Positions 1-35,525 of a stretch of 35,762 nt of DNA are shown one piece after another. Where the stretch lies: positions 1 to 35,762 of IMG/VR virus record IMGVR_UViG_3300044259_000246; one strand, given 5' to 3'. Numbering within the stretch: the stretch's first letter is position 1; every line of letters starts with the position of its first letter. A model generated the notes under the pieces. It searched no databases and had not been told where the DNA came from. It worked only from the letters and a program-made list of their open reading frames with translations. The stretch comes from a virus (lineage: Duplodnaviria > Caudoviricetes). The position numbers were made by a program, and so were the translations under genes.

Positions 1-459
1 GAGGTAGCCACCGACAGACAGATTATCCGGCAGACTGGTGATGCCAGTGTCCTGCAAGTCGAGGTAGCCACCGACAGACAGATTATCCGGCAGACTGGTG
101 ATGCCAGTGTCCTGCAAGTAGAGGGAGCCACCGACAGACAGATTATCCGGCAGACTGGTGATGCCAGTGTCCTGCAAGTCGAGGTAGCCACCGACAGACA
201 GATTATCCGGCAGACTGGTGATGCCAGTGCCGCGCAAGTAGAGGGAGCCACCGACAGACAGATTATCCGGCAGACTGGTGATGCCAGTGCCCTGCAAGTC
301 GAGGGAGCCACCGACAGACAGATTATCCGGCAGACTGGTGATGCCAGTGCCGCGCAAGTAGAGGGAGCCACCGACAGACAGATTATCCGGCAGACTGGTG
401 ATGCCAGTGCCGCGCAAGTAGAGGGAGCCACCGACAGACAGATTATCCGGCAGACTGGT
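1..459. repeat. Tandem array of 60-bp units (7 full plus 1 partial visible)
   Basis: Units start at 1, 61, ... 421 and differ only at unit positions 5, 50, 52-53 and 60. Confidence 0.98.
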
Positions 460-570
460 AATATCAGCACGTCCCAGCAGAGACAGATCGCATTCAATTA
501 CAATAGAGCCATTATCATTAACAACATGGTTAATTTTTTTCTTTTTCAAAACATCCACAAAATTAGACAT
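1..570 (-). CDS. Leucine-rich-repeat protein with 20-aa units, 3' end outside the window (not in ORF track)
   Basis: Manual translation from ATG at 570 (GGAG RBS upstream): MSNFVDVLKKKKINHVVNDNGSIVIECDLSLLGRADITSLPDNLSVGGSL, then repeats of [Y/D]L[R/Q][G/D]TGITSLPDNLSVGG[S/Y]L. Open to base 1 (190 codons, no stop). LxLxxTxIxxLP is an LRR signature. Confidence 0.9.
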   Translation of the reverse strand, partial: MSNFVDVLKKKKINHVVNDNGSIVIECDLSLLGRADITSLPDNLSVGGSLYLRGTGITSLPDNLSVGGSLYLRGTGITSLPDNLSVGGSLDLQGTGITSLPDNLSVGGSLYLRGTGITSLPDNLSVGGYLDLQDTGITSLPDNLSVGGSLYLQDTGITSLPDNLSVGGYLDLQDTGITSLPDNLSVGGYL

Positions 571-649
571 TTAAATTTCTCCACACCAGTTTTTAGATTG
601 AGTTAATCCCTCGCCGTGAGGCGATTAAATTGCACATATAAAGGATTAA

Positions 650-1558
650 TTAACGGGAGGCTTCGCCGCCCAGCACTTCGATCAGGTTTTTAATTAACGC
701 TGACAGTTCACCAGTAATTAATACGAAATCAGCTTCAAATCGCTGGTTAATATCTTCTCGGTCAATATCGTCATTCTGCTCTAATACAGAATCAGATAAT
801 TTCAGTTTCTTCAGTACTCCGTCATCAGCTAACACAAAACTGATTTTTTCCTGCCATTCCAGCGCTAGTTTTGTTACAAGCTTTCCAGCCTCGATGTGTC
901 CGGCTATTTCGCTGGAAATCAGGTCTTGCTTCTTACTTCGCAAGATACCGCCACCTTCCAGAATTGCTTTTAGCTCCGCTTCATCGCGCAATCCGAAGCC
1001 TTGCGGAACGGCACCATTACGAACCCACTCAGTCAGTGTCAGCTCGATAGGGCTTTCCATTGTCAATGGAACCACAGGAAGTGAGCCAAGCGTCTTGCGC
1101 AACAAAGCCAGAGTGTCTTCGGCTTTCCGTGCGCTGGCGGCATCGACAATGAGCAAGTTTGATTTGGTATCGATCCACAACTGCGTTTTTTGAAACTTAC
1201 TGAATGCACGCGGTAGCAGGGTATGAAGCACCTCATCCTTAATGGAGTCCTTTTCGGTCTTCTTAAGTTTGCGATGCTGCTCCAGTTCCGTGCGTTCGAT
1301 TTTTGCTGCCAGTTCACGTTTTATTACAGGTGATGGGATCATTTTCTCTTCACGCTGCACCGTGACAATAATCTGATCACCAACCTGATGGGCTAATGCA
1401 TCACCAGTTGGTAGCGGTGGAACCCAGCCCATTTTCTGCATGTCATTACTTCCACATGGCGTGAATGCGAAGACTTGCATTTGTTCTGCCAGCTTTGATA
1501 AATCAACCCCGCGAGACAGACGGTAGATGCTTGCGTTTTTAAAACTAAGTACGCTCAT
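650..1558 (-). CDS. rdgC: Recombination-associated protein RdgC (phage-encoded)
   Basis: [53 protein letters not shown] motifs. Start moved to ATG 1558 because of the CAGGAG RBS. Confidence 0.93.
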
Positions 1559-3039: not shown

Positions 3040-3573
3040 CTAAGCGCCTGCTTTCTTTGTTCTTCCGCCGCCATTGCCGCTTTCTAGCCACCTTCTTGCT
3101 TTTGACTCAAGTGAGTCAGCATAAGCTCTTGCATCACCATCAGCCCACTCTGGAGAAGGAACGTCTTCTTTATGCAAAATGAAATCGACAACAGCACGCC
3201 GCTCCTCAGGAGATTCTGCGTATTTTGATGTCATGGCCCGATCGTGAGTTATATATGGTGGTGCTGATGGTTCCCTAAAGGCCAGGCTTGCTTTACCCTC
3301 ATTAGTGGCAGAATAGAGTGATATTCTATCAATCTCTCTCTGTATTGAAGGGCTAAAATCAGACACTAAGCAATTGAATCTCTCGGCAAATTTTATTGCT
3401 ACCTCTACGTTAAGAGGCACTCGCCCATTTAGATATTGACTGACTGCGCTTTGGGTAGAAAAACCCAGATCGTCAGCAAGCACAGCCTGAGTTAACCCAG
3501 CCTGTCTCTTGAAAATAGCCATAAGCCTTTCGGCATCAGCTTTCTGCTCTGGTGTAAGTGGTTTTGCTGGCAT
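3040..3573 (-). CDS. cI: CI-like prophage repressor (XRE HTH), 177 aa, no recognisable S24 peptidase domain
   Basis: MPAKPLTPEQKADAERL...LTQAVLADDLGFSTQSAVSQYLNGRVPLN is a lambda CI-like HTH; divergent from cro. Confidence 0.88.
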   Translation of the reverse strand: MPAKPLTPEQKADAERLMAIFKRQAGLTQAVLADDLGFSTQSAVSQYLNGRVPLNVEVAIKFAERFNCLVSDFSPSIQREIDRISLYSATNEGKASLAFREPSAPPYITHDRAMTSKYAESPEERRAVVDFILHKEDVPSPEWADGDARAYADSLESKARRWLESGNGGGRTKKAGA

Positions 3574-3607
3574 CTCTTTACGCGTTTCACTAATTTCACT
3601 CAAGGTT

Positions 3608-3672
3608 ATTACAGGTACTAATAAATAAAAAACAGTCGGACTATTGCCTGAAAATAACAGTCGGACTAATAT
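3608..3672 (+). promoter_or_regulatory. pR promoter with oR operators
   Basis: TTGCCT-17 nt-TAATAT (3644-3672). Operators AACAGTCGGACTATT (3631-3645), AACAGTCGGACTAAT (3656-3670) and weaker ATTACAGGTACTAAT (3608-3622) share the oL consensus. Confidence 0.82.
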
Positions 3673-3706
3673 TAGTCGTGATTTAAATAGAGCAGAAGGA
3701 AGTAGC

Positions 3707-3916
3707 ATGAAGAAATCAAACAACATCAAGTCTGTGCGGGAGAGGCTTGGCTTATCTCAGTCGGCTCTCGCGGCTGAAATTGGAGTATCACAGGGAAATA
3801 TCAGCCACTACGAGTGCCAGCGCCAAAGCGTTCCACAGGATGTATCGAATCGCATCATCGATGTGGCGAAAAAAAGGGGGATTGAGATCTCTTTTAACGA
3901 CATCTACAGCTCTTGA
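3707..3916 (+). CDS. cro: Cro-like HTH regulator
   Basis: MKKSNNIKSVRERLGLSQSALAAEIGVSQGNISHYE; AAGGA RBS; position after pR. Confidence 0.88.
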   Translation: MKKSNNIKSVRERLGLSQSALAAEIGVSQGNISHYECQRQSVPQDVSNRIIDVAKKRGIEISFNDIYSS

Positions 3917-4884: not shown

Positions 4885-5896
4885 ATTGTCGGCGTTTGTG
4901 TGGGACGGTTGCGCATCGTCTGGTATGAAATTAGCGTCAGTGGCCGTTATGGCACGTCTTGCTGATTTCTCGTCCGATGATGGCATTTGCTGGCCCTCAA
5001 TTGAAACCATAGCGCGGCAACTGGGAGCGGGGCCGAGCACTGTGCGCACGACGATCGCGAAGCTGGAGAAAGACGGCTGGTTAACTCGCACCCAGCGCCG
5101 TAAAGGCAACAGAAACGCATCGAATATGTATCAGTTGAACGTTGCGAAGCTCTATGCCGCTGCCCAATCTCACCTGTCAGATTCTGACCCGTCAAAATCT
5201 GACACATCAAAATCTGATGCCTCAAAATTTGACCCGTCAAAATCGAGCAAAAAAGGCGGTTTTGACCCGTCAGAATCTGGCGGGGATCCGTCAGTAAGAT
5301 CAAAACAAGATCCATCAGATAAAAAGACTATTGGTCAACCGCCTCCGGCAGCTGACCCGCAGTCAGATAATTTACGGATTGATTATCGGGCTGTTCTGGA
5401 TGCCTACCACACGACACTGCCAGAAATCCCCAAAGTGCTGGAAATGACGGATGACCGTCGCAAGAAACTACGAGCCCTTTGGACTAAGTACGATTTCAAC
5501 CTTGAGCGCTGGTTCGCATATCTGCGCTACATCTCGAAGCATTGCCGCTGGATGCTGGAAAACCGTGCTGACACGTCAACCGGCCGCACATGGCGCAAGA
5601 AGAACTTCGACTACCTGATCACCGAGAAATGCTATCTGGCCGTCAAGGAAGAGCGTGCTAACGACTTGCCTAACGTCGAACGAGCGGACGTTGCCAATCG
5701 TGAAGAAGCGTTTACCCGCCTGGTGTCATCAAAGGGCAAACCTAAAAACCGTACTGAGGAAATTGCTCAGGCCGAAGCTGGCCGTGCAGGGCTGGGACGG
5801 ATGAACGCATTTCAGGCTATGCAGGCATGGAAAACGATTTGGGCATCGGCGGCCCATCAGGCTGGGGAAGAGGAATTACGGAGGCTGGCATCATGA
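4874..5896 (+). CDS. Phage replication initiator (O/YmfN-like, N-terminal HTH)
   Basis: MSVKLS...RLADFSSDDGICWPSIETIARQ; internal iterons; C-terminal W.KKNFDYL motif. Confidence 0.88.
   Translation: MSVKLSAFVWDGCASSGMKLASVAVMARLADFSSDDGICWPSIETIARQLGAGPSTVRTTIAKLEKDGWLTRTQRRKGNRNASNMYQLNVAKLYAAAQSHLSDSDPSKSDTSKSDASKFDPSKSSKKGGFDPSESGGDPSVRSKQDPSDKKTIGQPPPAADPQSDNLRIDYRAVLDAYHTTLPEIPKVLEMTDDRRKKLRALWTKYDFNLERWFAYLRYISKHCRWMLENRADTSTGRTWRKKNFDYLITEKCYLAVKEERANDLPNVERADVANREEAFTRLVSSKGKPKNRTEEIAQAEAGRAGLGRMNAFQAMQAWKTIWASAAHQAGEEELRRLAS
5183..5275. repeat. Replication origin iterons (15-bp units)
   Basis: TCTGACCCGTCAAAA, TCTGACACATCAAAA, TCTGATGCCTCAAAA and TTTGACCCGTCAAAA in tandem (5183-5242), plus TTTGACCCGTCAGAA (5261-5275); dyad core TGAC-CC-GTCA. 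Confidence 0.8.
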
Positions 5897-6117
5897 TTCT
5901 GGACGATATCGAATTAGCAAAAAAGCTCGAAGAAAAACAGCTTTGGCGTCGTGCTGCCCGCCAGTGGCTCACAGTTATGGATCGGACAAAAGGCACGACA
6001 GAACGTGGACTGGTAGCCACTCGCCGATCAATTTGCCTTTCCCGTGCCCGTATAGCTACGCAGCAATACAGCGGTGTTCGGGTTATGACCGCTGCGGGAG
6101 GCATTCTCAATGACTGA
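5893..6117 (+). CDS. PerC-family transcriptional activator
   Basis: AKKLEEKQLWRRAARQWL..M motif; ATGA overlap with the upstream gene. Confidence 0.8.
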   Translation: MILDDIELAKKLEEKQLWRRAARQWLTVMDRTKGTTERGLVATRRSICLSRARIATQQYSGVRVMTAAGGILND

Positions 6118-6979
6118 CTTTTCACAAACCGAGTATGTGCAGTCGCTGAATGACTACAAGTCTGAAGTTGCTCACGAGCTTAAGGATGTTGGCGATCAGT
6201 GGTGTACTCCAGATCAGCTGTTCTGGGGCATCAATGCCATGTTTGGTCCGTTGGTGCTTGACCTGTTCAGTGATGGTGAAAATTCAAAATGCCAGGCGTA
6301 TTACACCGCAGAAGATAACGCGCTGGCACAAAACTGGTCTGTCCGACTGGCTGAGTTGAACGGTGCAGCATTCGGAAACCCGCCATATTCCCGCGCTAAG
6401 CAGCACGAAGGGCAGTACATCACTGGTATGCGTCACATCATCGATCATGTTATGGCAATGCGTGAGCTGGGTGGGCGCTACGTATTCCTCATCAAATCAG
6501 CTACATCAGAAGTCTGGTGGCCGGAACAAGCCGATCACATCGCATTTATCCGCGGTCGAATTGGTTTTGACCTGCCGAACTGGTTCAAACCGAAAGATGA
6601 AAAACAGGTTGCGACCAGCGCATTCTTCGCCGGCGCCATAGCTGTTTTTGATAAGCGGTGGAGCGGTCCGGCAATTACCTACATCGAACGTGATCGGCTG
6701 TATGCGCAGGGTGAAGCATTCATGGCGCAGATCCGTAGAGAGGCGGAACGGCTGGTACCACAACAGCAACCGATAGTCATTCCTGATACTGAAAATACCG
6801 TCTGGCCCGCAGAGGTTAATTTCCTGTTCGAGAAAGTCCCAACAGCGGCAATGCTTTCAGACCATTTGCAGCACAAGCTGCGCAGCCACATCAACCGCCT
6901 GAAACTTGAGGGCATCCCCGATAACACCATTATCACGACCGCAGAAGCGCTAACCGCAGCAATGGGAGCAGCAGCATGA
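6110..6979 (+). CDS. Phage Dam-type DNA N6-adenine methyltransferase
   Basis: DQWCTP, LDLF, FGNPPYS and FIRGRIGF motifs. Confidence 0.9.
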   Translation: MTDFSQTEYVQSLNDYKSEVAHELKDVGDQWCTPDQLFWGINAMFGPLVLDLFSDGENSKCQAYYTAEDNALAQNWSVRLAELNGAAFGNPPYSRAKQHEGQYITGMRHIIDHVMAMRELGGRYVFLIKSATSEVWWPEQADHIAFIRGRIGFDLPNWFKPKDEKQVATSAFFAGAIAVFDKRWSGPAITYIERDRLYAQGEAFMAQIRREAERLVPQQQPIVIPDTENTVWPAEVNFLFEKVPTAAMLSDHLQHKLRSHINRLKLEGIPDNTIITTAEALTAAMGAAA

Positions 6980-8823
6980 AGGAAATTATTGTTGATAACT
7001 TTGCAGGTGGCGGCGGTGCTTCCACTGGAATTGAAATGGCGATCGGTCGCAGTGTCGATATCGCGATTAATCACGACCCTAACGCTATTGCAATGCACAC
7101 GACGAATCACCCAGACACATTGCATTACTGCGAATCAGTGTTTGATATCGATCCTGTCGCTGCGACTTCTGGCCGTCCCGTAGGGCTCGCATGGTTCTCG
7201 CCTGACTGCCGCCATTTTTCAAAAGCCAAAGGCAGCAAGCCGGTGAAGAAAGAGATTCGCGGCTTGGCGTGGATCGTGTTGCGTTGGGCGCTTTCGGTTC
7301 GTCCGCGCGTGATGATGCTGGAGAACGTGGAGGAATTTAAAACGTGGGGGCCATTACTGACTAATGACGATGGAACGCAGCAGCCAGATCCGGCGCGGGC
7401 GGGAGAAACGTTTGAAGCGTTTTGTGGCATGTTGTCGGGTGGCATTCCTGCCGATCACCCAGCTTTAGCCGAAGCGTGCGAATTTCTGGGGATTGAGCCA
7501 GCCAGCGAGCATGGCAAACGGCTTATTTGCGGGCTGGGCTACAACGTCGATTACCGCGAGCTGCGCGCGTGTGATTACGGTGCTCCAACGATCCGTAAAC
7601 GCTTTTTTATGGTGATGCGCTGTGATGGGCTGCAAGTTACATGGCCGGAGGCTACACACGCGGATCCGAAATCACCTGCCGTACAGGCTGGCAAGTTGAA
7701 ACCGTGGCGCACAGCTGCTGAGTGTATAGATTGGTCGATCCCTTGCCCGTCGATTTTCGAGCGCAAAAAGCCTTTGGCCGAAAACACGTTGCGACGTATT
7801 GCGAGGGGGTTAGAGCGGTTCGTGATTAATAATCCAGAGCCGTTTATCGTTAAGTGCAACCACACATCAACGAAAACCCGCTACGAATGCTTTCGCGGTC
7901 AGTCAATCGATGAGCCATTGCATACAATTACGCGCACGCCCGGATTTGCTGTTGTTCAGCCTTTTTTGGTGGGCGCTGGTGGTCCGAAGTATTCAGCAAA
8001 ACCACGTTCAACAGAACAACCCATGAACACGCTCTGCAATACGAATCACTCTGCTCTGATAACGCCGTACATTGCACGAATCGGCCAGACTGGTTTCGGT
8101 GGCGATCGCATGGCATACGACGCTACAGACCCGCTGACGACCGTCGTAAGCAAAGCAGAGCATCTGCTGGTTGCTCCAGTTATTGCGCGTCAGTTCGGTA
8201 ACAGCGTAGGCCATGGTGCTGACGAGCCAAGCGGCACTATTACGGCTGGCGGTGGCGGAAAAAGCCAGTTGGTATCCGCGTTTCTGGCTAAACATTTTGG
8301 TGGCAATTACACGGGACCCGGCGCGAATCTGGATGAGCCGGCACACACAATAACGACCGTTGATCATCATGCACTAGTAACCTCGAACCTCATAAAAATG
8401 AGAGGGACGAACATAGGTCAGCGCACTGACACGCCGCTGCAAACGGTGACCGCTGGCGGAAACCATTTCGGCGAGGTTCGTGCTTTTCTCTTGAAGTATT
8501 ACGGTAATGAGAAAGAAGGCGTCAGCCTGAATGATCCGTTGCATACAGTCACGACGAATGACCGGTTCGGGCTGGTTACGGTTGAGGGCATCGATTATCA
8601 GATCGTTGATATCGGGATGCGCATGCTGCAACCGCATGAACTGTACGCCGCTCAAGGATTCCCAGACTGGTACATCATCGATCAGGATTTTCGAGGCGTG
8701 AAATACGCAAAGGACAAACAAGTAGCCAGATGCGGCAACGCTGTGCCTCCTCCATTTGCCGAAGCGCTTGTGCGTGCAAATCTGCCAGAGATGTGTACAG
8801 CGCGTCACGGAGTGGCAGCATGA
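6976..8823 (+). CDS. DNA C5-cytosine methyltransferase with a long repetitive variable region
   Basis: DNFAGGGG, FSPDC (catalytic Cys), ENV, RKRFF and GNAV motifs. Confidence 0.92.
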   Translation: MKEIIVDNFAGGGGASTGIEMAIGRSVDIAINHDPNAIAMHTTNHPDTLHYCESVFDIDPVAATSGRPVGLAWFSPDCRHFSKAKGSKPVKKEIRGLAWIVLRWALSVRPRVMMLENVEEFKTWGPLLTNDDGTQQPDPARAGETFEAFCGMLSGGIPADHPALAEACEFLGIEPASEHGKRLICGLGYNVDYRELRACDYGAPTIRKRFFMVMRCDGLQVTWPEATHADPKSPAVQAGKLKPWRTAAECIDWSIPCPSIFERKKPLAENTLRRIARGLERFVINNPEPFIVKCNHTSTKTRYECFRGQSIDEPLHTITRTPGFAVVQPFLVGAGGPKYSAKPRSTEQPMNTLCNTNHSALITPYIARIGQTGFGGDRMAYDATDPLTTVVSKAEHLLVAPVIARQFGNSVGHGADEPSGTITAGGGGKSQLVSAFLAKHFGGNYTGPGANLDEPAHTITTVDHHALVTSNLIKMRGTNIGQRTDTPLQTVTAGGNHFGEVRAFLLKYYGNEKEGVSLNDPLHTVTTNDRFGLVTVEGIDYQIVDIGMRMLQPHELYAAQGFPDWYIIDQDFRGVKYAKDKQVARCGNAVPPPFAEALVRANLPEMCTARHGVAA

Positions 8824-10204: not shown

Positions 10205-10603
10205 CTACTTATCGTCCACACTCATTTCTTTTGTATGAAGTGAGTGTGCTGCTTTTATCTCAATGTCATATCTTTTAAGCTCTTCCATATCGATAAGATC
10301 TAATAAATCTGTAAGTCGTTGGCGATGTTCGGGGGTAATAGGTGGTTGCCTATTAAGAGCTTTTTGGATTGCTTTTCTCTTTTTTGCTATCGATTGTTTG
10401 AACATGAGTGATGATAAGCTTGGTATATTTAACCATGCTAATAATAATATTGCTAAGTGGGATATTCCAACCGAAAGACCAGGTAGGAAGGGTTTGACAT
10501 CGGCAGGAATTATATTTTGAGAGGCCAAGCATGATTCAAGAATAAAATTAACAACAGGGATTAACCATACTTGGCAGAGCAAATAACTTTTACCACCGAT
10601 CAA
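10205..10603 (-). CDS. Hypothetical membrane protein (about 2 TM plus helical tail)
   Basis: TTG start overlapping the upstream stop (TTGA), AGGAGG RBS, two hydrophobic segments. Confidence 0.7.
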   Translation of the reverse strand: MIGGKSYLLCQVWLIPVVNFILESCLASQNIIPADVKPFLPGLSVGISHLAILLLAWLNIPSLSSLMFKQSIAKKRKAIQKALNRQPPITPEHRQRLTDLLDLIDMEELKRYDIEIKAAHSLHTKEMSVDDK

Positions 10604-10848
10604 CTATTTTTCCTCCTAACTTTGCCATTAGCACGAAGTTCAGCGAGGAAGTCAATAAGTTCGCCATCTTCATCAGAAAGATTGACTAACTTTGTATGTT
10701 TTTTCCCTTCTTTATCCACATAAGATAATTTTATCGATTTTGGTGGAAAGAAAAATGCCAATGCATGGAAAACCACACCTCTTGCGACAAGAAGTGAAAC
10801 CACCGTCAGGGTGATAAGGGTCATGTACTCCATGATTTCTGTTGGCAT
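10600..10848 (-). CDS. Hypothetical single-pass membrane protein
   Basis: GAGGA RBS; hydrophobic N-terminus and charged C-terminus. Confidence 0.75.
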   Translation of the reverse strand: MPTEIMEYMTLITLTVVSLLVARGVVFHALAFFFPPKSIKLSYVDKEGKKHTKLVNLSDEDGELIDFLAELRANGKVRRKNS

Positions 10849-10860
10849 TTTCCTCTCTCG

Positions 10861-11772
10861 TTAAACAATTTTCCTATCGCCTGCAGCCCTATGGCGAACA
10901 ACTCGTTCGATTTCGTATCGAGGACGCCCAAGCTTTTCGCCTGCTTGGGTTTGTGTGTAAGTATATTCCACAACGAAGAGGTCATCTTTGCTAAATGTGG
11001 CTTTATTAAGGTTTATCCTCTCAAGGAAAGCGTCGTCATTCATGGCGGTAGCCACTTCATTTCCGTTAGGTAGTATCATTTTCCAGCCAGTTTTTGCAAG
11101 GAAATTAACACATGAAATGTGAACGTTTGCGGTGACAGTTTCAGCAAATTTTTCTTCCTTAACAAGAGACCTTGTTGCTTTGAATGACTTTTTATCCTCT
11201 TCAGTGACGGTAACTAATGGTTCGTCATCACGTTCAACAGAAAAGGTGGATATCCCTTCGCTTGCTAATGGTTTGTAAACTAGATCATCAAATCCTTTTC
11301 GTACTGAGGGGGACGATAAAACCTTCTGAACAACAATAGGGCACTCTATTTCTTCATTATCTTTGGCGATCAGCGTGGCTGTTCCCTTTTCTTCATCAAC
11401 AGCAACTTCTGCTAACTTTCTCCCCTTTAACCACTTTATTGCCCCAAGAACAGTTCCTACACTAGTACCAGTTGCAATTGCGACTATTTCTTTCGATAGT
11501 CCCAAAATCTCTAATACGTTAATGTTATCAGCTTGTTGGGCAACAGAGACTACGACTTCAAATGAACCTTCTTGATGTGCCTTTACATTCACCTGAACAT
11601 CGGAAGATTCACCATTAATAATTTTATCGGATTGTTCAATGATGTCACACAGAGAGGTTATTGCATTACCAAGAATTCGCGCATCAATTTGATGCTCTTT
11701 AGGGCCGCCAGGCTCATTGCCGTTATATTTGATTTCAAAGTCAGTAACGTTAAACGCGATCGGTTCCGCCAT
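10861..11772 (-). CDS. Hypothetical soluble protein, 303 aa, first gene of the antisense cassette
   Basis: Start MAEPIAF after a CAGGA RBS; candidate promoter TTGCAA-17-TAGCCT (11848 to 11820). Confidence 0.85.
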   Translation of the reverse strand: MAEPIAFNVTDFEIKYNGNEPGGPKEHQIDARILGNAITSLCDIIEQSDKIINGESSDVQVNVKAHQEGSFEVVVSVAQQADNINVLEILGLSKEIVAIATGTSVGTVLGAIKWLKGRKLAEVAVDEEKGTATLIAKDNEEIECPIVVQKVLSSPSVRKGFDDLVYKPLASEGISTFSVERDDEPLVTVTEEDKKSFKATRSLVKEEKFAETVTANVHISCVNFLAKTGWKMILPNGNEVATAMNDDAFLERINLNKATFSKDDLFVVEYTYTQTQAGEKLGRPRYEIERVVRHRAAGDRKIV

Positions 11773-11859
11773 TTTTTTATTCCTGCGCATGGTATGGGTA
11801 AGAGCCTGACAATCCGGGCAGGCTATTGAAGATAAAAAATCTTTGCAAATATACAAAAT

Positions 11860-12434: not shown

Positions 12435-12629
12435 AGCTATCAAAGAATATCGAGAGGGCTGCCAAATCTGAACGGCCTTTTTTTATTTTCTGTAAATCAC
12501 ATCGCGCCCGCGCATTGCAGAACAAGGAAGAAGTAATCCAGTTTAATAAGTTGTGATAATTCCTCTATGTACACTTTACTTGTCCGAGTGACGCATACAC
12601 TGTACATACATCAAAGAGGGATACATCGC

Positions 12630-13487
12630 ATGAAAATGAATTTCATCAAACTGCTTCCAGTTCTGTTACTGGGTGCTTGCTCAACGTACCAACCGCAAGA
12701 GACAGCCGAACAGCAACCTCAGCAGCAAACTGTAACGCCGGAACCAGCTCGTCAGGCAGCGGTTGCAGCGGTCGCGGCAGTGTCGAAAGATAACTGTCTC
12801 GTGGGTTGCCCGACTGGCGGCAGTTCTCAAACGCTGATTCGTGATGCATATACGCTGAACAATAACAGTTCGACAAAATTCGCGAATTGGGTAGCGTATA
12901 AAATGACGTCAAGCAGCCAAGCGAGCGGCCGTTCACGCACATGGCGTCAAGACCCTGATTTACCTGCTGCTGATACGCTGGCACCAGCAGCATACACTGG
13001 CGCAAATGCTGCGCTGGCTGTTGATCGAGGCCACCAGGCACCGCTTGCTGGGCTCGGAGGATCGTCAGACTGGCAGTCTTTGAATTATTTATCGAACATC
13101 ACGCCGCAAAAAGCCGATCTCAACCAAGGCGCGTGGGTGCGACTTGAAGATAAAGAACGGGCTCTGTCTAATAGTAAAACTGTCTACACCGTGACTGGTC
13201 CGTTGTTCGAACGCAATATTGCAACGCTGCCTAATGCGCCAGCAGTTCAAATCCCGAGTGGTTATTGGAAAGTCCTGTTTACCGGCTCAAGTCCGGCTGA
13301 CGGCCAATTCGCCGCATTCATCATGGATCAGAACACACCACGCAACGCGAATTTCTGTAATTTCCAAGTGACGGTTAGTCAAATTGAACAGAAGACCGGC
13401 TTAAACATCTGGTCTGCTCTGCCTGCGAACGTAGCCAGCACAATCAAAGCGCAGAAAGGTTCGCTCGGTAGTGACCTCGGTTGTTAA
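12630..13487 (+). CDS. DNA/RNA non-specific endonuclease (NucA/NucM beta-beta-alpha-Me family), lipoprotein
   Basis: DRGHQAP active site, YLSNITPQ...LNQGAW..LE; signal peptide with lipobox LLGA-C; GAGGGA RBS; terminator at 13522-13553. Confidence 0.93.
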   Translation: MKMNFIKLLPVLLLGACSTYQPQETAEQQPQQQTVTPEPARQAAVAAVAAVSKDNCLVGCPTGGSSQTLIRDAYTLNNNSSTKFANWVAYKMTSSSQASGRSRTWRQDPDLPAADTLAPAAYTGANAALAVDRGHQAPLAGLGGSSDWQSLNYLSNITPQKADLNQGAWVRLEDKERALSNSKTVYTVTGPLFERNIATLPNAPAVQIPSGYWKVLFTGSSPADGQFAAFIMDQNTPRNANFCNFQVTVSQIEQKTGLNIWSALPANVASTIKAQKGSLGSDLGC

Positions 13488-13594: not shown

Positions 13595-13900
13595 ATGTCC
13601 GAACCTTTTACCAGTACCGGCGCTGCTGGTTCTGCGCTGGTGCCGTATACCGACGTGTGGACATACCCGCCTGTTCAGTTTTACCCAGGTAAACATCCCT
13701 GCGAAAAACCCGCTGAGATGATGCGTGACATTATTGCGGCCAGTAGTCGCCCCGGTGATGTAGTCGCTGATTTCTTCATGGGTTCCGGCACAACGATTAA
13801 AGCTGCAATGACGTTAGGGCGGCACGCACTGGGCGTAGAGTTAGAAAAAGAACGCTTTGAGCAAACGCAAGAAGAAATTAAAGCATTAAAAACACCATAA
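13595..13900 (+). pseudogene. Chimeric remnant: holin-like N-terminus fused to the C-terminal part of an N6/N4 DNA methyltransferase
   Basis: MSEPFTSTGAAGSAL followed by VPYTDVW...GKHPCEKP...DFFMGSGTT. The catalytic DPPY half is missing. Confidence 0.75.
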
Positions 13901-15602: not shown

Positions 15603-15857
15603 ATGTCATACAATTTAGGTGATTTGCCGCGCGACGAGCGGGACAAGATTAACGTCGATCTGGCGGCGTCTGGCGTAGCGTACAAAGAGCGCATGAATAT
15701 GCCTGTCATTGCCGAGCAGGTCGAACGCGAACAGCCTGAGCATCTGCGCGAATACTTTCGTGAACGAGTGGCGCATTACAGGCAGATGAGTAGAACGCTA
15801 CCGCGCGGCACTGACACTGTGTATCAGCAGATGGCTGAGGCCAACGGTAAGAAGTAA
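15603..15857 (+). CDS. holE: DNA polymerase III theta subunit homologue (HolE / P1 Hot-like)
   Basis: [42 protein letters not shown] closely matches the HolE core; GGAGG RBS; terminator at 15875-15900. Confidence 0.92.
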
Positions 15858-22025: not shown

Positions 22026-22256
22026 ATGAAACTTATCGCTATTAAGCCTATTTATCTCGACGGCGTAGTCGTTGTGGAAGGTACGGAGTTTGAAACACGG
22101 GAGCAGCATGGCCGCGAGCTACTTAAAAAAGGCTATGCAAAAGAAATCACCGTGGACAATCTTGCAGAGCAGCCAGAGCAGCCAGAGCAGCCAGAGCAGC
22201 CAGAGCAGCCAGAGCGGCCAGAGCAGCCAGAGCAGCCCAAAAAGGCTAAAAAATAA
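22026..22256 (+). CDS. Small head-associated protein with EQP repeat tail
   Basis: GGGAG RBS, MKLIAIKPIY start; lies between capsid and connector genes. Confidence 0.75.
   Translation: MKLIAIKPIYLDGVVVVEGTEFETREQHGRELLKKGYAKEITVDNLAEQPEQPEQPEQPEQPERPEQPEQPKKAKK
22167..22238 (+). repeat. 9-bp coding VNTR (GAGCAGCCA) x8
   Basis: Direct reading; encodes (EQP)5-ERP-(EQP)2. Confidence 0.95.
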
Positions 22257-29621: not shown

Positions 29622-30109
29622 CAGGTTCTGCTGTATTACATCGCGTTTATGCGTCCAGCGGGCGCGAGGTTCGCATACTGACGTTAGAAATAATTATTGG
29701 AACCGATCGTTATTATCTCACGCAGGGATGGGATGATATTCCCGCAAAATTGGAGTCTGGTGTAGACGTAATGTTTACGGCCTGTGCAATGGATATTGCG
29801 CTTCCTGCACGAAACGCAGACGGCACTCAAGACCTGAGATTCGCTATCAGCAATATTGACGGGGTTGTATCAAACAGAATCCGCATCGCTCTTGATGCCA
29901 ACGAACGAATGCTTATTACGTATCGTGAGTATCTGGACGCATATTTATCAGCTCCAGCGAAACGACCGTGGACAATGAAAGTGAAAGGAGGCTACTGGAC
30001 GGCTCCAGAGGTTCAGATTACAGCTGGTTACATGAATGTGCTGGATACGGCATGGCCTCGCCGCCGCTTTACCCTTCCTGAGTTTCCCGGATTACGCTAC
30101 ATCTCGTAG
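29618..30109 (+). CDS. Minor tail protein (DUF1833-like)
   Basis: IALPARNADGTQDLRFAISNIDG; gene position. Confidence 0.8.
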   Translation: MTGSAVLHRVYASSGREVRILTLEIIIGTDRYYLTQGWDDIPAKLESGVDVMFTACAMDIALPARNADGTQDLRFAISNIDGVVSNRIRIALDANERMLITYREYLDAYLSAPAKRPWTMKVKGGYWTAPEVQITAGYMNVLDTAWPRRRFTLPEFPGLRYIS

Positions 30110-33347: not shown

Positions 33348-35525
33348 ATGACCACTTATAACACCAGGAATCCGCTGGGCTCTGCTGCTGCAAAAGATCT
33401 GTACGATAACGCCGAAAATCTGGATGGCTTTGTTAACGACACTCAAAATGAGTCACTCCCTGATCGTCTCGGCGTTGATCGCAAAACGTGGTACGGCATG
33501 CAGCAGATGTTTATTCGTGCTATGTCTAAAATGGGTTGGTTGCCAATGCCGGATGTTTCATTTGAAACCGGAGCTACACTGAGTGATTCAACGCAGGCTC
33601 TCCAGCATAGTGATAATAATTATTACGCGTGGCATGGAGTATTTCCTAAAATTGTTCCAGCGGGGTCATCGCCAGATAGTACCGGTGGGATCGGAAGTGG
33701 CGCATGGGCAAACGTAACTGATTTAACATTACGCTCAGCTCTCTCTCAGCCGGATGGATTTCAATTTGTTGGCGGCACACAGATTGCGCGAATAACTCTA
33801 TCCGACGCTAAAGGATTTAATGGTTTTTTAGATGGTCAGCAGGTATTTATCACTGATATCGGCTATCTATTCAAATTTAATGCTACACGTAACATCATCC
33901 CTGGCCAGCCAGCATCAGTGATATCAACTGACGACGAATTACATAAATTAGTCGCGTCAGGCGGCATGCTTGAGTTTGACGATTACGATAAGTTACGCGG
34001 ACTTGAGTCGCAAAATTACGCTAAATACTTGTCTCGACTACGTACGAATAAATCGATCGGGCTGGTGGCTTACGGAGACTCGATTACTTGGGGGCAGCGA
34101 CCGGACGGGGGGCAGTACCCGCTGAACTATCCAGTGCAAATCGCGCAAACAATGTCTACCCGCACACAGTGCGCCTGGTCCGCGCAAAACATGGCATCGC
34201 CAGGCGATCGAGCGCTGACAAACTACGTGCGGAATATCAATGACGGCACGACGGGGCATATTTCTACGATAATGCTCGGTGTTAATGACATTAAGGCAGC
34301 AACTGATAACGGCAACAACCCCGAAGATATCGAAGGAGATACGCTATACGGCGTCAAAAGTTATGCTGTAGTGATGCGTAAATTTATCGCACGTGAGCTG
34401 TTACGTGGCCGATGTGTCGTAATTTTGGGTACCACGCAATGGGTGAGCGGTGCGAACACATCACCCATGAGCAACATGACGGAATGTTACCTATCACAGA
34501 CATACGACTCCGCCGCTAACGCGGTAGCCAGTGAGTTTGGTTGTATGTTTGTAGACACAATGCGTGACGTGATTCAGCAGTTCGGAATCAGTGAAAGCTG
34601 CCATGACGGCATCCACCTTCGCGCCGATTTTCTTGAAATAATCGGCAAAAGATTTGCTTGCGTATTCATGCATATAGACTATAAAAAACCTCGTAAGATA
34701 CGTCACGGTGATGTGTTTATACCCGGATTTTTTCAGAATCCTATCTCATCGAATCGAACAATAACTCACAGCTCGTTTACTAATGGCTCATCCCCACCAC
34801 TTGGCGGCGGCACCGATAGCCCGGAAGCCATTGGTGTTCTACTGCCCAACGATGATATAGGCGGCAGCGTAACGTTCGCGATGTATATTGATGAAGATAG
34901 CGTGGTGGCATTTCCATCAATAAATTCAGACGGAACACCGTATACGCTTGATGTGATAGCTGATGATGGTGCTACTCAGCCTGATTACCCTTCTGATGTG
35001 GAGATAATCCCTGTATTACGTGATCGGCAATATATTGTATCTGGTCGATCCGTTGGTGGTTCAGGGCAGAAAAATCGCACAACTGAAAAATACACAGTAG
35101 GACGTGTAGACGGATGTTATATCCATTTTACGACGCGCGGATGGCATATGCTGACGTTCGCAGTTGGGCAAAACGCTGGCGTTGCTGCTGTGGAAGGGAT
35201 CGTTTTTGACAGTTGGTCGAACGTGAGAAACAACGACGTGTACGGCGGTGTTTCCGGGACTTTATTCAGGCGTGGGGTCGCAAGCACAATGACTGGATTT
35301 GTGAATGCTTGCACATCCGAAGCTACAGGCGTATTTGATGTAGCGATCAGTAATCTTGTGCCTGAAAATTATCGCGTCGAAGTCGAGTACACTGAAGACG
35401 CTGCGCTTATTAACCACAGAGTGATATTTAAAGCCGAAGGATCATTCAGGATTCAGTTTTATAACTCAGCTAACGCACTCGTTAACCCTACGTCATTTAG
35501 AGCTACAGTGATCGGCGGCAGATAG
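33348..35525 (+). CDS. Tail spike with SGNH/GDSL esterase domain
   Basis: Virion-attachment N-terminus (MTTYNTRNPLGS..KDLYDNA; W.G.FPK.VPAGSSP.STGGIG.GAW); SGNH blocks YGDSIT, MLGVND and DGIH. Confidence 0.85.
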   Translation: MTTYNTRNPLGSAAAKDLYDNAENLDGFVNDTQNESLPDRLGVDRKTWYGMQQMFIRAMSKMGWLPMPDVSFETGATLSDSTQALQHSDNNYYAWHGVFPKIVPAGSSPDSTGGIGSGAWANVTDLTLRSALSQPDGFQFVGGTQIARITLSDAKGFNGFLDGQQVFITDIGYLFKFNATRNIIPGQPASVISTDDELHKLVASGGMLEFDDYDKLRGLESQNYAKYLSRLRTNKSIGLVAYGDSITWGQRPDGGQYPLNYPVQIAQTMSTRTQCAWSAQNMASPGDRALTNYVRNINDGTTGHISTIMLGVNDIKAATDNGNNPEDIEGDTLYGVKSYAVVMRKFIARELLRGRCVVILGTTQWVSGANTSPMSNMTECYLSQTYDSAANAVASEFGCMFVDTMRDVIQQFGISESCHDGIHLRADFLEIIGKRFACVFMHIDYKKPRKIRHGDVFIPGFFQNPISSNRTITHSSFTNGSSPPLGGGTDSPEAIGVLLPNDDIGGSVTFAMYIDEDSVVAFPSINSDGTPYTLDVIADDGATQPDYPSDVEIIPVLRDRQYIVSGRSVGGSGQKNRTTEKYTVGRVDGCYIHFTTRGWHMLTFAVGQNAGVAAVEGIVFDSWSNVRNNDVYGGVSGTLFRRGVASTMTGFVNACTSEATGVFDVAISNLVPENYRVEVEYTEDAALINHRVIFKAEGSFRIQFYNSANALVNPTSFRATVIGGR

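Follow-up and report, generated by a model that had tools for sequence, protein, structure and literature searches.

The window analysed here is an entire contig of 35,762 bp that was classed as a provirus with a completeness of 54%. Its layout is that of a lambda-like prophage, with cI-, cro-, cII- and O-like genes, Q, lysis genes and HK97-type head and tail genes. At its left end lies the 5' part (190 aa) of an LRR gene (1..570, minus strand); the contig end falls inside the repeat array of this gene, and the minus-strand frame from 570 to 1 stays open for 190 aa until it runs off the contig start. The preceding gene on the same strand is rdgC (650..1558, minus; Pfam PF04381, E 5e-112; phrog_724), the upstream gene of the early-left operon, which ends 79 nt upstream of the LRR gene. 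Both lie left of the cI-, cro-, cII- and O-like genes, and the cI-like (minus) and cro-like (plus) regulators at 3040..3916 place the LRR gene in the leftward early operon. The position in the pL operon beside rdgC that had been assigned in the original prediction was thus borne out. The intergenic leader after rdgC (571..649, minus) is near-identical in relatives in which either the LRR gene or an HD-hydrolase gene comes next, and a ribosome-binding site, GGAG (579..582, minus), is located 8 nt before the ATG. A scan of positions 450-2200 for promoters and terminators gave no signal above shuffles, and in RNA runs the share of words found was at most 0.11. The product had also been predicted to lack a signal peptide and, indeed, the best 11-residue hydropathy near the N-terminus was 1.7, with no obvious signal peptide. 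A comparison of the LRR gene product with PADLOC gave no match.

The rest of the prophage carries several other features. Upstream of rdgC, a gene-free leader (1583-1862) is 96% identical in three other loci (L001, L025 and L101), there without rdgC, and is a candidate regulatory RNA or antitermination leader. The O-like replication gene contains a 15-bp repeat (5.3 copies, 5166-5244), likely origin iterons, and two methylase genes follow at 6110-8823; a 101-aa ORF (13595-13900, plus) matches only the last third of an N6/N4 methylase profile and is possibly a remnant. A 331-aa gene among three reverse-oriented genes after Q (10205-11856, minus) matches phrog_3243 and the candidate defence system PDC-S42 in PADLOC (E 3e-48). 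A DNA/RNA non-specific endonuclease (12567-13487, plus; PF01223, E 1.5e-48), likely a moron, lies between Q and the lysis genes, and a HolE-like (DNA polymerase III theta) gene (15603-15857, plus; PF06440) after the lysis cassette. A 9-bp repeat (8.1 copies, 22165-22237) directly follows the major capsid gene. The tail spike (33348-35525, plus; PF18668 and PF13472) has a GDSL esterase-type domain, which suggests a polysaccharide deacetylase receptor-binding protein.

TRF detected a repeat with a period of 60 at 1-459 (7.7 copies, 96% matches, no indels). In the protein, an N-cap without signal peptide (residues 1-36; 463..570, minus), predicted from the model of the homologue P0087 to form a helix and strands including a degenerate first coil, is followed by seven full 60-bp/20-aa units ITSLPDNLSVGGxLxLxxTG, delimited by TRF and translation (43..462, minus; in unit order 403-462, 343-402, 283-342, 223-282, 163-222, 103-162 and 43-102). 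A partial eighth unit (1..42, minus) with the Tyr allele at position 13 is truncated by the contig end. The unit matches, in tandem, the VxGxLxLxxNxL consensus (N being N/T/S/C) as V-G-G-x-L-x-L-x-x-T-G-I. The seven full units differ at five nucleotides, which fall in four codons, and each of these differences alters the amino acid: codon 13 is TCC or TAC (S/Y), 15 TAC or GAC (Y/D), 17 CGC or CAG (R/Q) and 18 GGC or GAC (G/D). The 16-nt variable core of unit 1 spans 410..425 (minus), with variable bases 425, 420, 413, 412 and 410, and the same offsets recur every 60 nt downward. Re-reading of the seven units confirmed both the four biallelic codons and the core order SYRG SYRG SDQG SYRG YDQD SYQD YDQD. 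The claim that there is no synonymous difference between the units stood in the plus-strand register 1-420; if the units start at Ile, one ATT/ATC difference appears at the N-cap junction. The window by itself is thin evidence of shuffling, because all four gametic combinations occur for only one of the six site pairs (15 x 18). Synonymous changes make up 29% of single changes, so that four non-synonymous sites without a synonymous one are likewise not significant by themselves in the window; the significance of amino-acid-only variation comes from relatives, not from the window alone.

The 3' end of the gene was recovered from two sequencing runs (X1, which may be the source, and X2), in which a 4,480-nt contig joins the array. 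Read on in frame, the contig gives SCESLYLDPQ, with which the C-terminal domain begins in complete homologues from Pectobacterium, Symbiopectobacterium, Serratia, Dickeya and Lonsdalea. The LRR gene therefore continues in frame, beyond the window, into a C-terminal domain of about 85 aa, and there was no sign at this junction, in either run, of the frameshift that had been considered as a threat to the original prediction. The exact number and order of units in the window are uncertain. In X1, scaffold k-mers occurred at 5.8x single-copy depth versus seven copies in the window, which suggests about six scaffold copies, not seven; separate contigs carried Y-DLQD, S-YLRG and a one-mismatch Tyr/RG unit, and S-DLQG and S-YLQD units were not among the X1 contigs listed. 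X2 lists RG-type contigs only, with depths of 4.4 and 3.2 copies versus 5.2 and 3.9 expected from the window; since these depths also fit dropped variants, no difference between the two samples is claimed. Many assemblies of relatives break inside the array, and the five-unit P0087 resembles a collapsed version of the eight-unit L101, so that the two may be one array that was collapsed in P0087. Short-read assemblies are unreliable for fungal repeat arrays too, according to the available text of PMC12222747. Assembly collapse was rejected as the source of the pattern in the family, since mosaics are present in complete-genome or chromosome records and separate unit contigs in X1; in the window itself, it may have affected the unit count and order. 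Two off-register events elsewhere in the family, a 4-residue duplication in L046 (6001-6528) and a 12-residue frame-shifted stretch within L003 (4914-6203), are either slippage or assembly errors.

The structure was modelled on P0087, a complete homologue that is 83% identical in alignment A3 and is not the window protein itself (pLDDT 86). By sequence, the top match of P0087 was FlrP of Vibrio alginolyticus (8z5u, E 3e-23). The same entry was the top match of the model in Foldseek (E 1.6e-5, rmsd 2.6) and in VIA (Z 17.2, rmsd 3.0, 164 aligned; the next match had Z 13.2). The rod is thus predicted to be a FlrP-like LRR beta-solenoid, and the earlier call of an LRR solenoid was upheld by the VxGxLxL consensus and by this model. 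According to DSSP on the homologue model, positions 13, 15 and 17 flank the LxL strand. On the predicted strand, their alternation with Leu14 and Leu16, both invariant, would turn them outward on a single face. The concave face of the original prediction is a candidate at most, given that the best structural match is the beta-solenoid FlrP. The LxL strand is the usual binding face of LRRs, as stated in the available text of PMC9525666.

Homologues were gathered with the window protein as query, which favours arrays with the same alleles, and several of the arrays are close kin. The DNA set contained 43 arrays with at least three units, of which 25 with a mean unit identity of at least 0.85 were counted and 18 older, diverged arrays were excluded. 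Of 363 proteins in the protein set, 160 had at least three units and 101 passed a whole-unit identity of 0.8. Amino-acid polymorphism at positions 13, 15, 17 and 18 was found in 24, 23, 23 and 12 of the 25 DNA arrays, synonymous polymorphism in 0, 0, 1 and 0. Extra alleles that change the amino acid versus synonymous ones numbered 102 to 1 in the core, 19 to 19 at the other x positions and 5 to 30 at conserved positions; the Fisher p of 4e-12 for the core excess is overstated, since some arrays are kin. Variation on the x positions of xLxLxx, as originally predicted from the seven units, therefore extends to the family, with its excess in the core. In the 101 protein arrays, heterozygosity at 13, 15 and 17 was 0.52-0.56 within arrays versus 0.51-0.68 between arrays; at positions 3, 6, 7, 9 and 20 it was 0.30-0.58 between arrays and 0.02-0.12 within them. 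The alleles form a small alphabet (Ser, Tyr, Trp and Asp at 13; Asp and Tyr at 15; Arg, Ser, Glu and Gln at 17) that recalls minimalist Tyr/Ser binder libraries.

The silent sites next to these alleles behave differently within and between arrays. Most enterobacterial arrays have no more than one synonymous codon column internally, and the scaffolds of eight gammaproteobacterial arrays differ from each other by 2-12 synonymous changes. Leu14 and Leu16 showed no synonymous polymorphism within any of the 25 arrays, yet four and six codons, respectively, are used across arrays. Likewise, the wobble base was common to the Tyr and Asp codons at position 15 in all 23 arrays that carry both. The scaffold is thus homogenised within arrays, in line with the original prediction, and diverged between them, the mark of concerted evolution. 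Homogenisation extends to 1-2 bases from sites that are still polymorphic, and drift alone does not account for this. A few codons per repeat are likely under diversifying selection, as indicated by counts (allele counts and the wobble test).

Reassortment of the alleles was assessed by the four-gamete test, which 10 of 20 DNA arrays of at least five units failed, among them four from complete-genome or chromosome records (L045, L057, L061 and L064). Among protein arrays, only 5 of 33 failed, versus 14.6 expected under free recombination. The shuffling of alleles that had been predicted is thus supported by half of the DNA arrays, but it is partial: the deficit in the protein arrays points to a partial linkage of the variable sites. 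Identical neighbours would be in excess after recent tandem duplication. The units had 36 identical neighbours in 289 pairs versus 32.5 ± 4.0 after shuffling, an order indistinguishable from random, and there was no signal of charge alternation between neighbouring coils (like-next-to-like z -0.02 to 1.2 at all positions). Arrays of relatives differ in number and order of units. In Lonsdalea quercina, all nine alleles are different, with 1-6 cores joined to an end domain that hardly varies, the shortest being the single-coil allele P0208, and the 12 alleles closest to that of the window are all different. Unit number in the family ranges from 1 to 19.

The repeat was found in 85 of 400 longer and 507 of 657 similar-length candidates. 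Of the repeat loci, 44 are viral and 39 genomic, the latter from several phyla; hosts include Bacteroidota, Campylobacterota, Alphaproteobacteria and others. Complete homologues have 129-370 aa and consist of N-cap, LRR and a small domain. In relatives, the gene has rdgC or a DUF2303 gene on one side and a YfbR-like HD hydrolase on the other, and ParB-like, methylase or HNH and then xis/int-like genes are found further along; in the Edwardsiella phage Edno5, the repeat gene precedes recE/recT in the early-left operon. No recombinase was found among the neighbours scanned. The four closest rdgC loci (L109-L112, 91-97% identical) have the LRR gene in three cases; in the fourth, L109, it is absent and the HD gene sits right behind the same leader. 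The other 76 of 80 rdgC loci gave no match to the LRR or end-domain patterns. The isolate run X9 is without the LRR gene, and in X5 and X7 a different N-terminus begins at base 565. The LRR gene is thus an optional accessory cassette. A second C-terminal domain, of about 150 aa and with the motif YRxITGAC, follows the same repeat in many members, Bacteroidota loci among them (L003-L019, L057, L060, L065, L068, L069; P0001-P0009); it had no Pfam match in the proteins scanned. Further, three proteins (P0215, P0216 and P0225) have hydrophobic N-termini and two or three tandem LRR plus end-domain modules, and Gilliamella genomes (L075-L082) contain several diverged long-rod copies; both are possibly domesticated members.

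The likely host of the prophage is Pectobacterium, as judged from two CRISPR spacer matches and the closest named homologues. Two spacers of Pectobacterium carotovorum DSM 30168 (spacer loci L084:6026-6057 and L084:2563-2594) each match the window with two mismatches; one of them targets the repeat scaffold, the other position 30089, and the remaining 13 of the 15 spacers tested did not match the window. The scaffold match at 124..155 (plus) is one of eight with 2-3 mismatches. A search of the genus with P0087 revealed one full gene in 28 representatives and four weak matches.

The end domain is widespread and is also found on rods of other types. Its profile retrieved 447 representatives (E at most 1e-3, 50% clustering). 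By crude patterns, 70 of 149 newly listed end-domain proteins carry this LRR, 14 a helical repeat, 7 a pentapeptide repeat, 7 other repeats and 51 other sequence or none; Pfam found pentapeptides in six, DUF285 in one and classical LRRs in two of 20 picked proteins. Some end-domain proteins carry almost no rod. Since the end domain occurs on several rod types and the same rod on another, longer end domain, the two are interchangeable modules. The end-domain model (pLDDT 90) has four strands and two helices. No Pfam family matched the end domain above noise, NCBIfam gave no match, and a weak match to phrog_20532 (function unknown) was seen in 10 of 15 members. There was no match among PDB sequences (best E 0.11) and no Foldseek match of the model at E of at most 1e-3, and the best VIA match had Z 5.6, a value that does not show a new fold; in the ESM Atlas, only hypothetical, LRR_1 or pentapeptide clusters were found. 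The conserved C-terminal domain is probably the constant working part of the protein.

Taken together, we consider it fairly probable that the gene encodes an early binder in which ordinary recombination diversifies a strip of the surface, selection filters the variants and the end domain has a fixed job. Such recombination, driven by the 44-nt identical scaffold, would take the form of unequal exchange and of gene conversion over short stretches, both of which would erase silent differences between units, and selection would keep a small Tyr/Ser/Asp/Arg/Glu/Gly/Trp alphabet segregating. The product would be a small cytoplasmic protein binder made early in infection or induction, the rod would pick a fast-changing partner, and the end domain would do a constant job, capping the rod and recruiting or blocking a conserved partner. 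If the rod is a binder, its partner may, as we suggest tentatively, be a host or rival-prophage defence protein, as inferred from operon position, accessory status and turnover. A wider reading, which we regard as doubtful, is that temperate phages in several phyla have, in a single gene, a binder library that diversifies itself, an adaptor that is retargeted within a phage population so as to neutralise changing host defence proteins. Four codons would then toggle a Tyr/Ser/Asp/Arg-type alphabet as in synthetic binary-code antibodies, the rod would plug into a conserved effector domain that is also paired with pentapeptide and other rods, and the adaptor system would correspond, on the side of the phage, to the HNWD immune receptors of fungi. 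Three observations speak against a binder: the substantial linkage between variable sites; the single-coil P0208 and the near-rodless proteins, according to which the rod may be dispensable unless these records are collapsed; and the random unit order, which fits poorly with a precise, fixed interface.

The main rival, which we hold to be rather improbable, takes the end domain as the functional unit and the rod as a spacer, shield or polyelectrolyte-like surface in which mixed Tyr, Asp, Arg and Ser serve solubility or general charge instead of a specific partner, so that the composition of the rod would count but the unit order would not. The presence of the end domain on unrelated rods, the random order, the wide range of unit numbers and the recurrence of few alleles across phyla (Y/D at position 15 in 70 of 89 runs) all fit a spacer. 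However, a mixed surface of this kind agrees poorly with neighbours of like kind not being depleted at any position, with arrays that are uniform at position 15 (L047, seven Asp) and with variation that is restricted to the LxL strand instead of all exposed positions.

Neutral turnover, in which positions 13, 15, 17 and 18 are merely tolerant and slippage and drift make the mosaic, is strongly disfavoured. Tandem 60-bp repeats are inherently unstable, the sites are partly linked and the gene can be lost, as this explanation would have it, but within arrays, synonymous sites are uniform even 1-2 nt from variable bases, although they are freer to change than these, other tolerant positions are fixed within arrays, and neutrality does not account for the 102:1 ratio of the core.

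It is very improbable that the variation is an escape from host CRISPR spacers aimed at the repeat. The P. carotovorum spacer with two mismatches to the scaffold has a protospacer with the 5' flank GAG, and its position 2 falls on the S/Y base, as an escape would suggest, but an escape should enrich synonymous changes and let the scaffold diverge, and the opposite was seen. Further, the Ser allele is kept in five of the eight matches, the protospacer does not reach positions 15, 17 and 18, only one of the 28 genus representatives contains the scaffold pattern, namely in the spacer itself, and the wide host range of the family suggests that the variation also occurs in hosts without such spacers. 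Equally little speaks for a moron-type effector that acts on the plant or insect host, in the manner of type III LRR effectors or of the repeat proteins of Liberibacter prophages: the likely host is a plant pathogen and there are weak matches to XopAC, XopAE, SspH2 and XopL models, but these reach 17-27 bits versus cut-offs of 450-1243, complete homologues have no E3 or other effector domain, the gene is oriented in the repressed early operon, and the family also occurs in Bacteroidota, Campylobacterota, Alphaproteobacteria and others.

A dedicated diversifier of the DGR or cassette-switching type that rewrites the core is, in our estimate, just as hard to credit. The alleles at 15 and 18 (D, Y, N, H and G) resemble AAY-derived codons, and the uniform wobble bases suggest that alleles are often re-created. 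Against this, RVT_1 (PF00078) was found in none of five records, two of them at least 90% complete (the control was positive in 3 of 14), and the variation is not adenine-specific, an A allele being absent from the coding strand at 46 of 117 polymorphic core bases. No recombinase is encoded among the scanned neighbours, and the window, a record of 54% completeness, contains no core copy outside the array (seven matches, all within it). In VLRs, separate donor cassettes or a template are copied into the expressed gene; TAL effectors consist of helical repeats of about 34 aa that read DNA, one repeat per base. The phage gene has in common with both a constant scaffold, few variable residues per repeat and modular reshuffling. 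Unlike for VLRs, no cassette library, template or dedicated enzyme was found, and VLR structures fit the P0087 model less well (Z about 10.6-10.9); unlike in TAL effectors, the rod is built of 20-aa beta-coils and is not helical. The VLR- or TALE-like system of the original prediction was therefore not upheld in the strict sense, as the window contains neither a donor cassette nor a template or RT and the rod is predicted to be a beta-solenoid, not helical; judged from the window and the five records searched for RT, the LRR gene is neither a DGR nor a VLR-type system.

In mechanism, the early binder favoured here is closest to the HNWD NLRs het-d/het-e of Podospora anserina (PMC1805685; PMC12222747, as far as their texts are available). 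The accessible part of PMC1805685 describes near-identical intragenic repeats with concerted evolution and variable copy number, in which four codons per repeat are diversified on the predicted interaction surface. In both HNWD genes and the phage gene, repeats of one gene resemble each other more closely than those of different genes, and this holds for silent sites as well. However, HNWD proteins, in the same available texts, are fungal immune receptors of the NACHT type that carry a WD40 propeller and have HET-C as ligand, with about 70 units across 10 loci, whereas the phage gene is one small gene for a 20-aa LRR rod without NTPase; Pfam found neither a NACHT NTPase nor WD40 in the complete homologues, which are not members of the HNWD NLRs. 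In structure, FlrP (PDB 8Z5U/8Z5W/8Z60) is closest, with the same 20-aa VxGxLxL-type coil in a beta-solenoid. The available text on FlrP (bioRxiv 10.64898/2025.12.04.692373) describes a secreted, LRR-only protein with a Sec signal that binds proteins and is a component of the flagellar rod. Its repeats are diverged and it has no C-terminal domain, whereas the phage gene, a prophage accessory, has near-identical repeats and an extra domain. The LRR gene product, without a hydrophobic leader and with the in-frame C-terminal domain, thus appears not to be an orthologue of FlrP, which gives the fold of the phage rod, not its function. The unit also fits the 'novel' VxGxLxLxxNxL class of LRRs that the available text of the review PMC8181103 attributes to Miyashita et al. 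2014; that text is silent on phages, concerted evolution and an end domain. HyvI/HyvII (LasAI/LasAII) of Liberibacter prophages (PMC3708911) also have near-identical intragenic repeats of variable copy number that were called LRR-like, but the repeat is an unrelated 44-aa one in autotransporter-like surface proteins, and site-restricted variation is not described in the part of that paper available.

In sum, repeat class, fold and evolutionary mechanism are each known separately, but their combination in phages was not found in the literature searched, nor was a description of this phage LRR family in those sources, which lay mostly outside subscription journals. Diversification of the surface is well supported by the comparison of array sequences. 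If the rod is merely a spacer, the end domain remains a widespread, uncharacterised phage module. If it is a binder, the genes would represent a family of phage adaptors with a constant domain and interchangeable repeat rods, and the 20-residue unit a very simple binder scaffold. The alleles would then form a natural series in which one end domain is combined with dozens of defined surface codes, including natural deletions, in culturable hosts.
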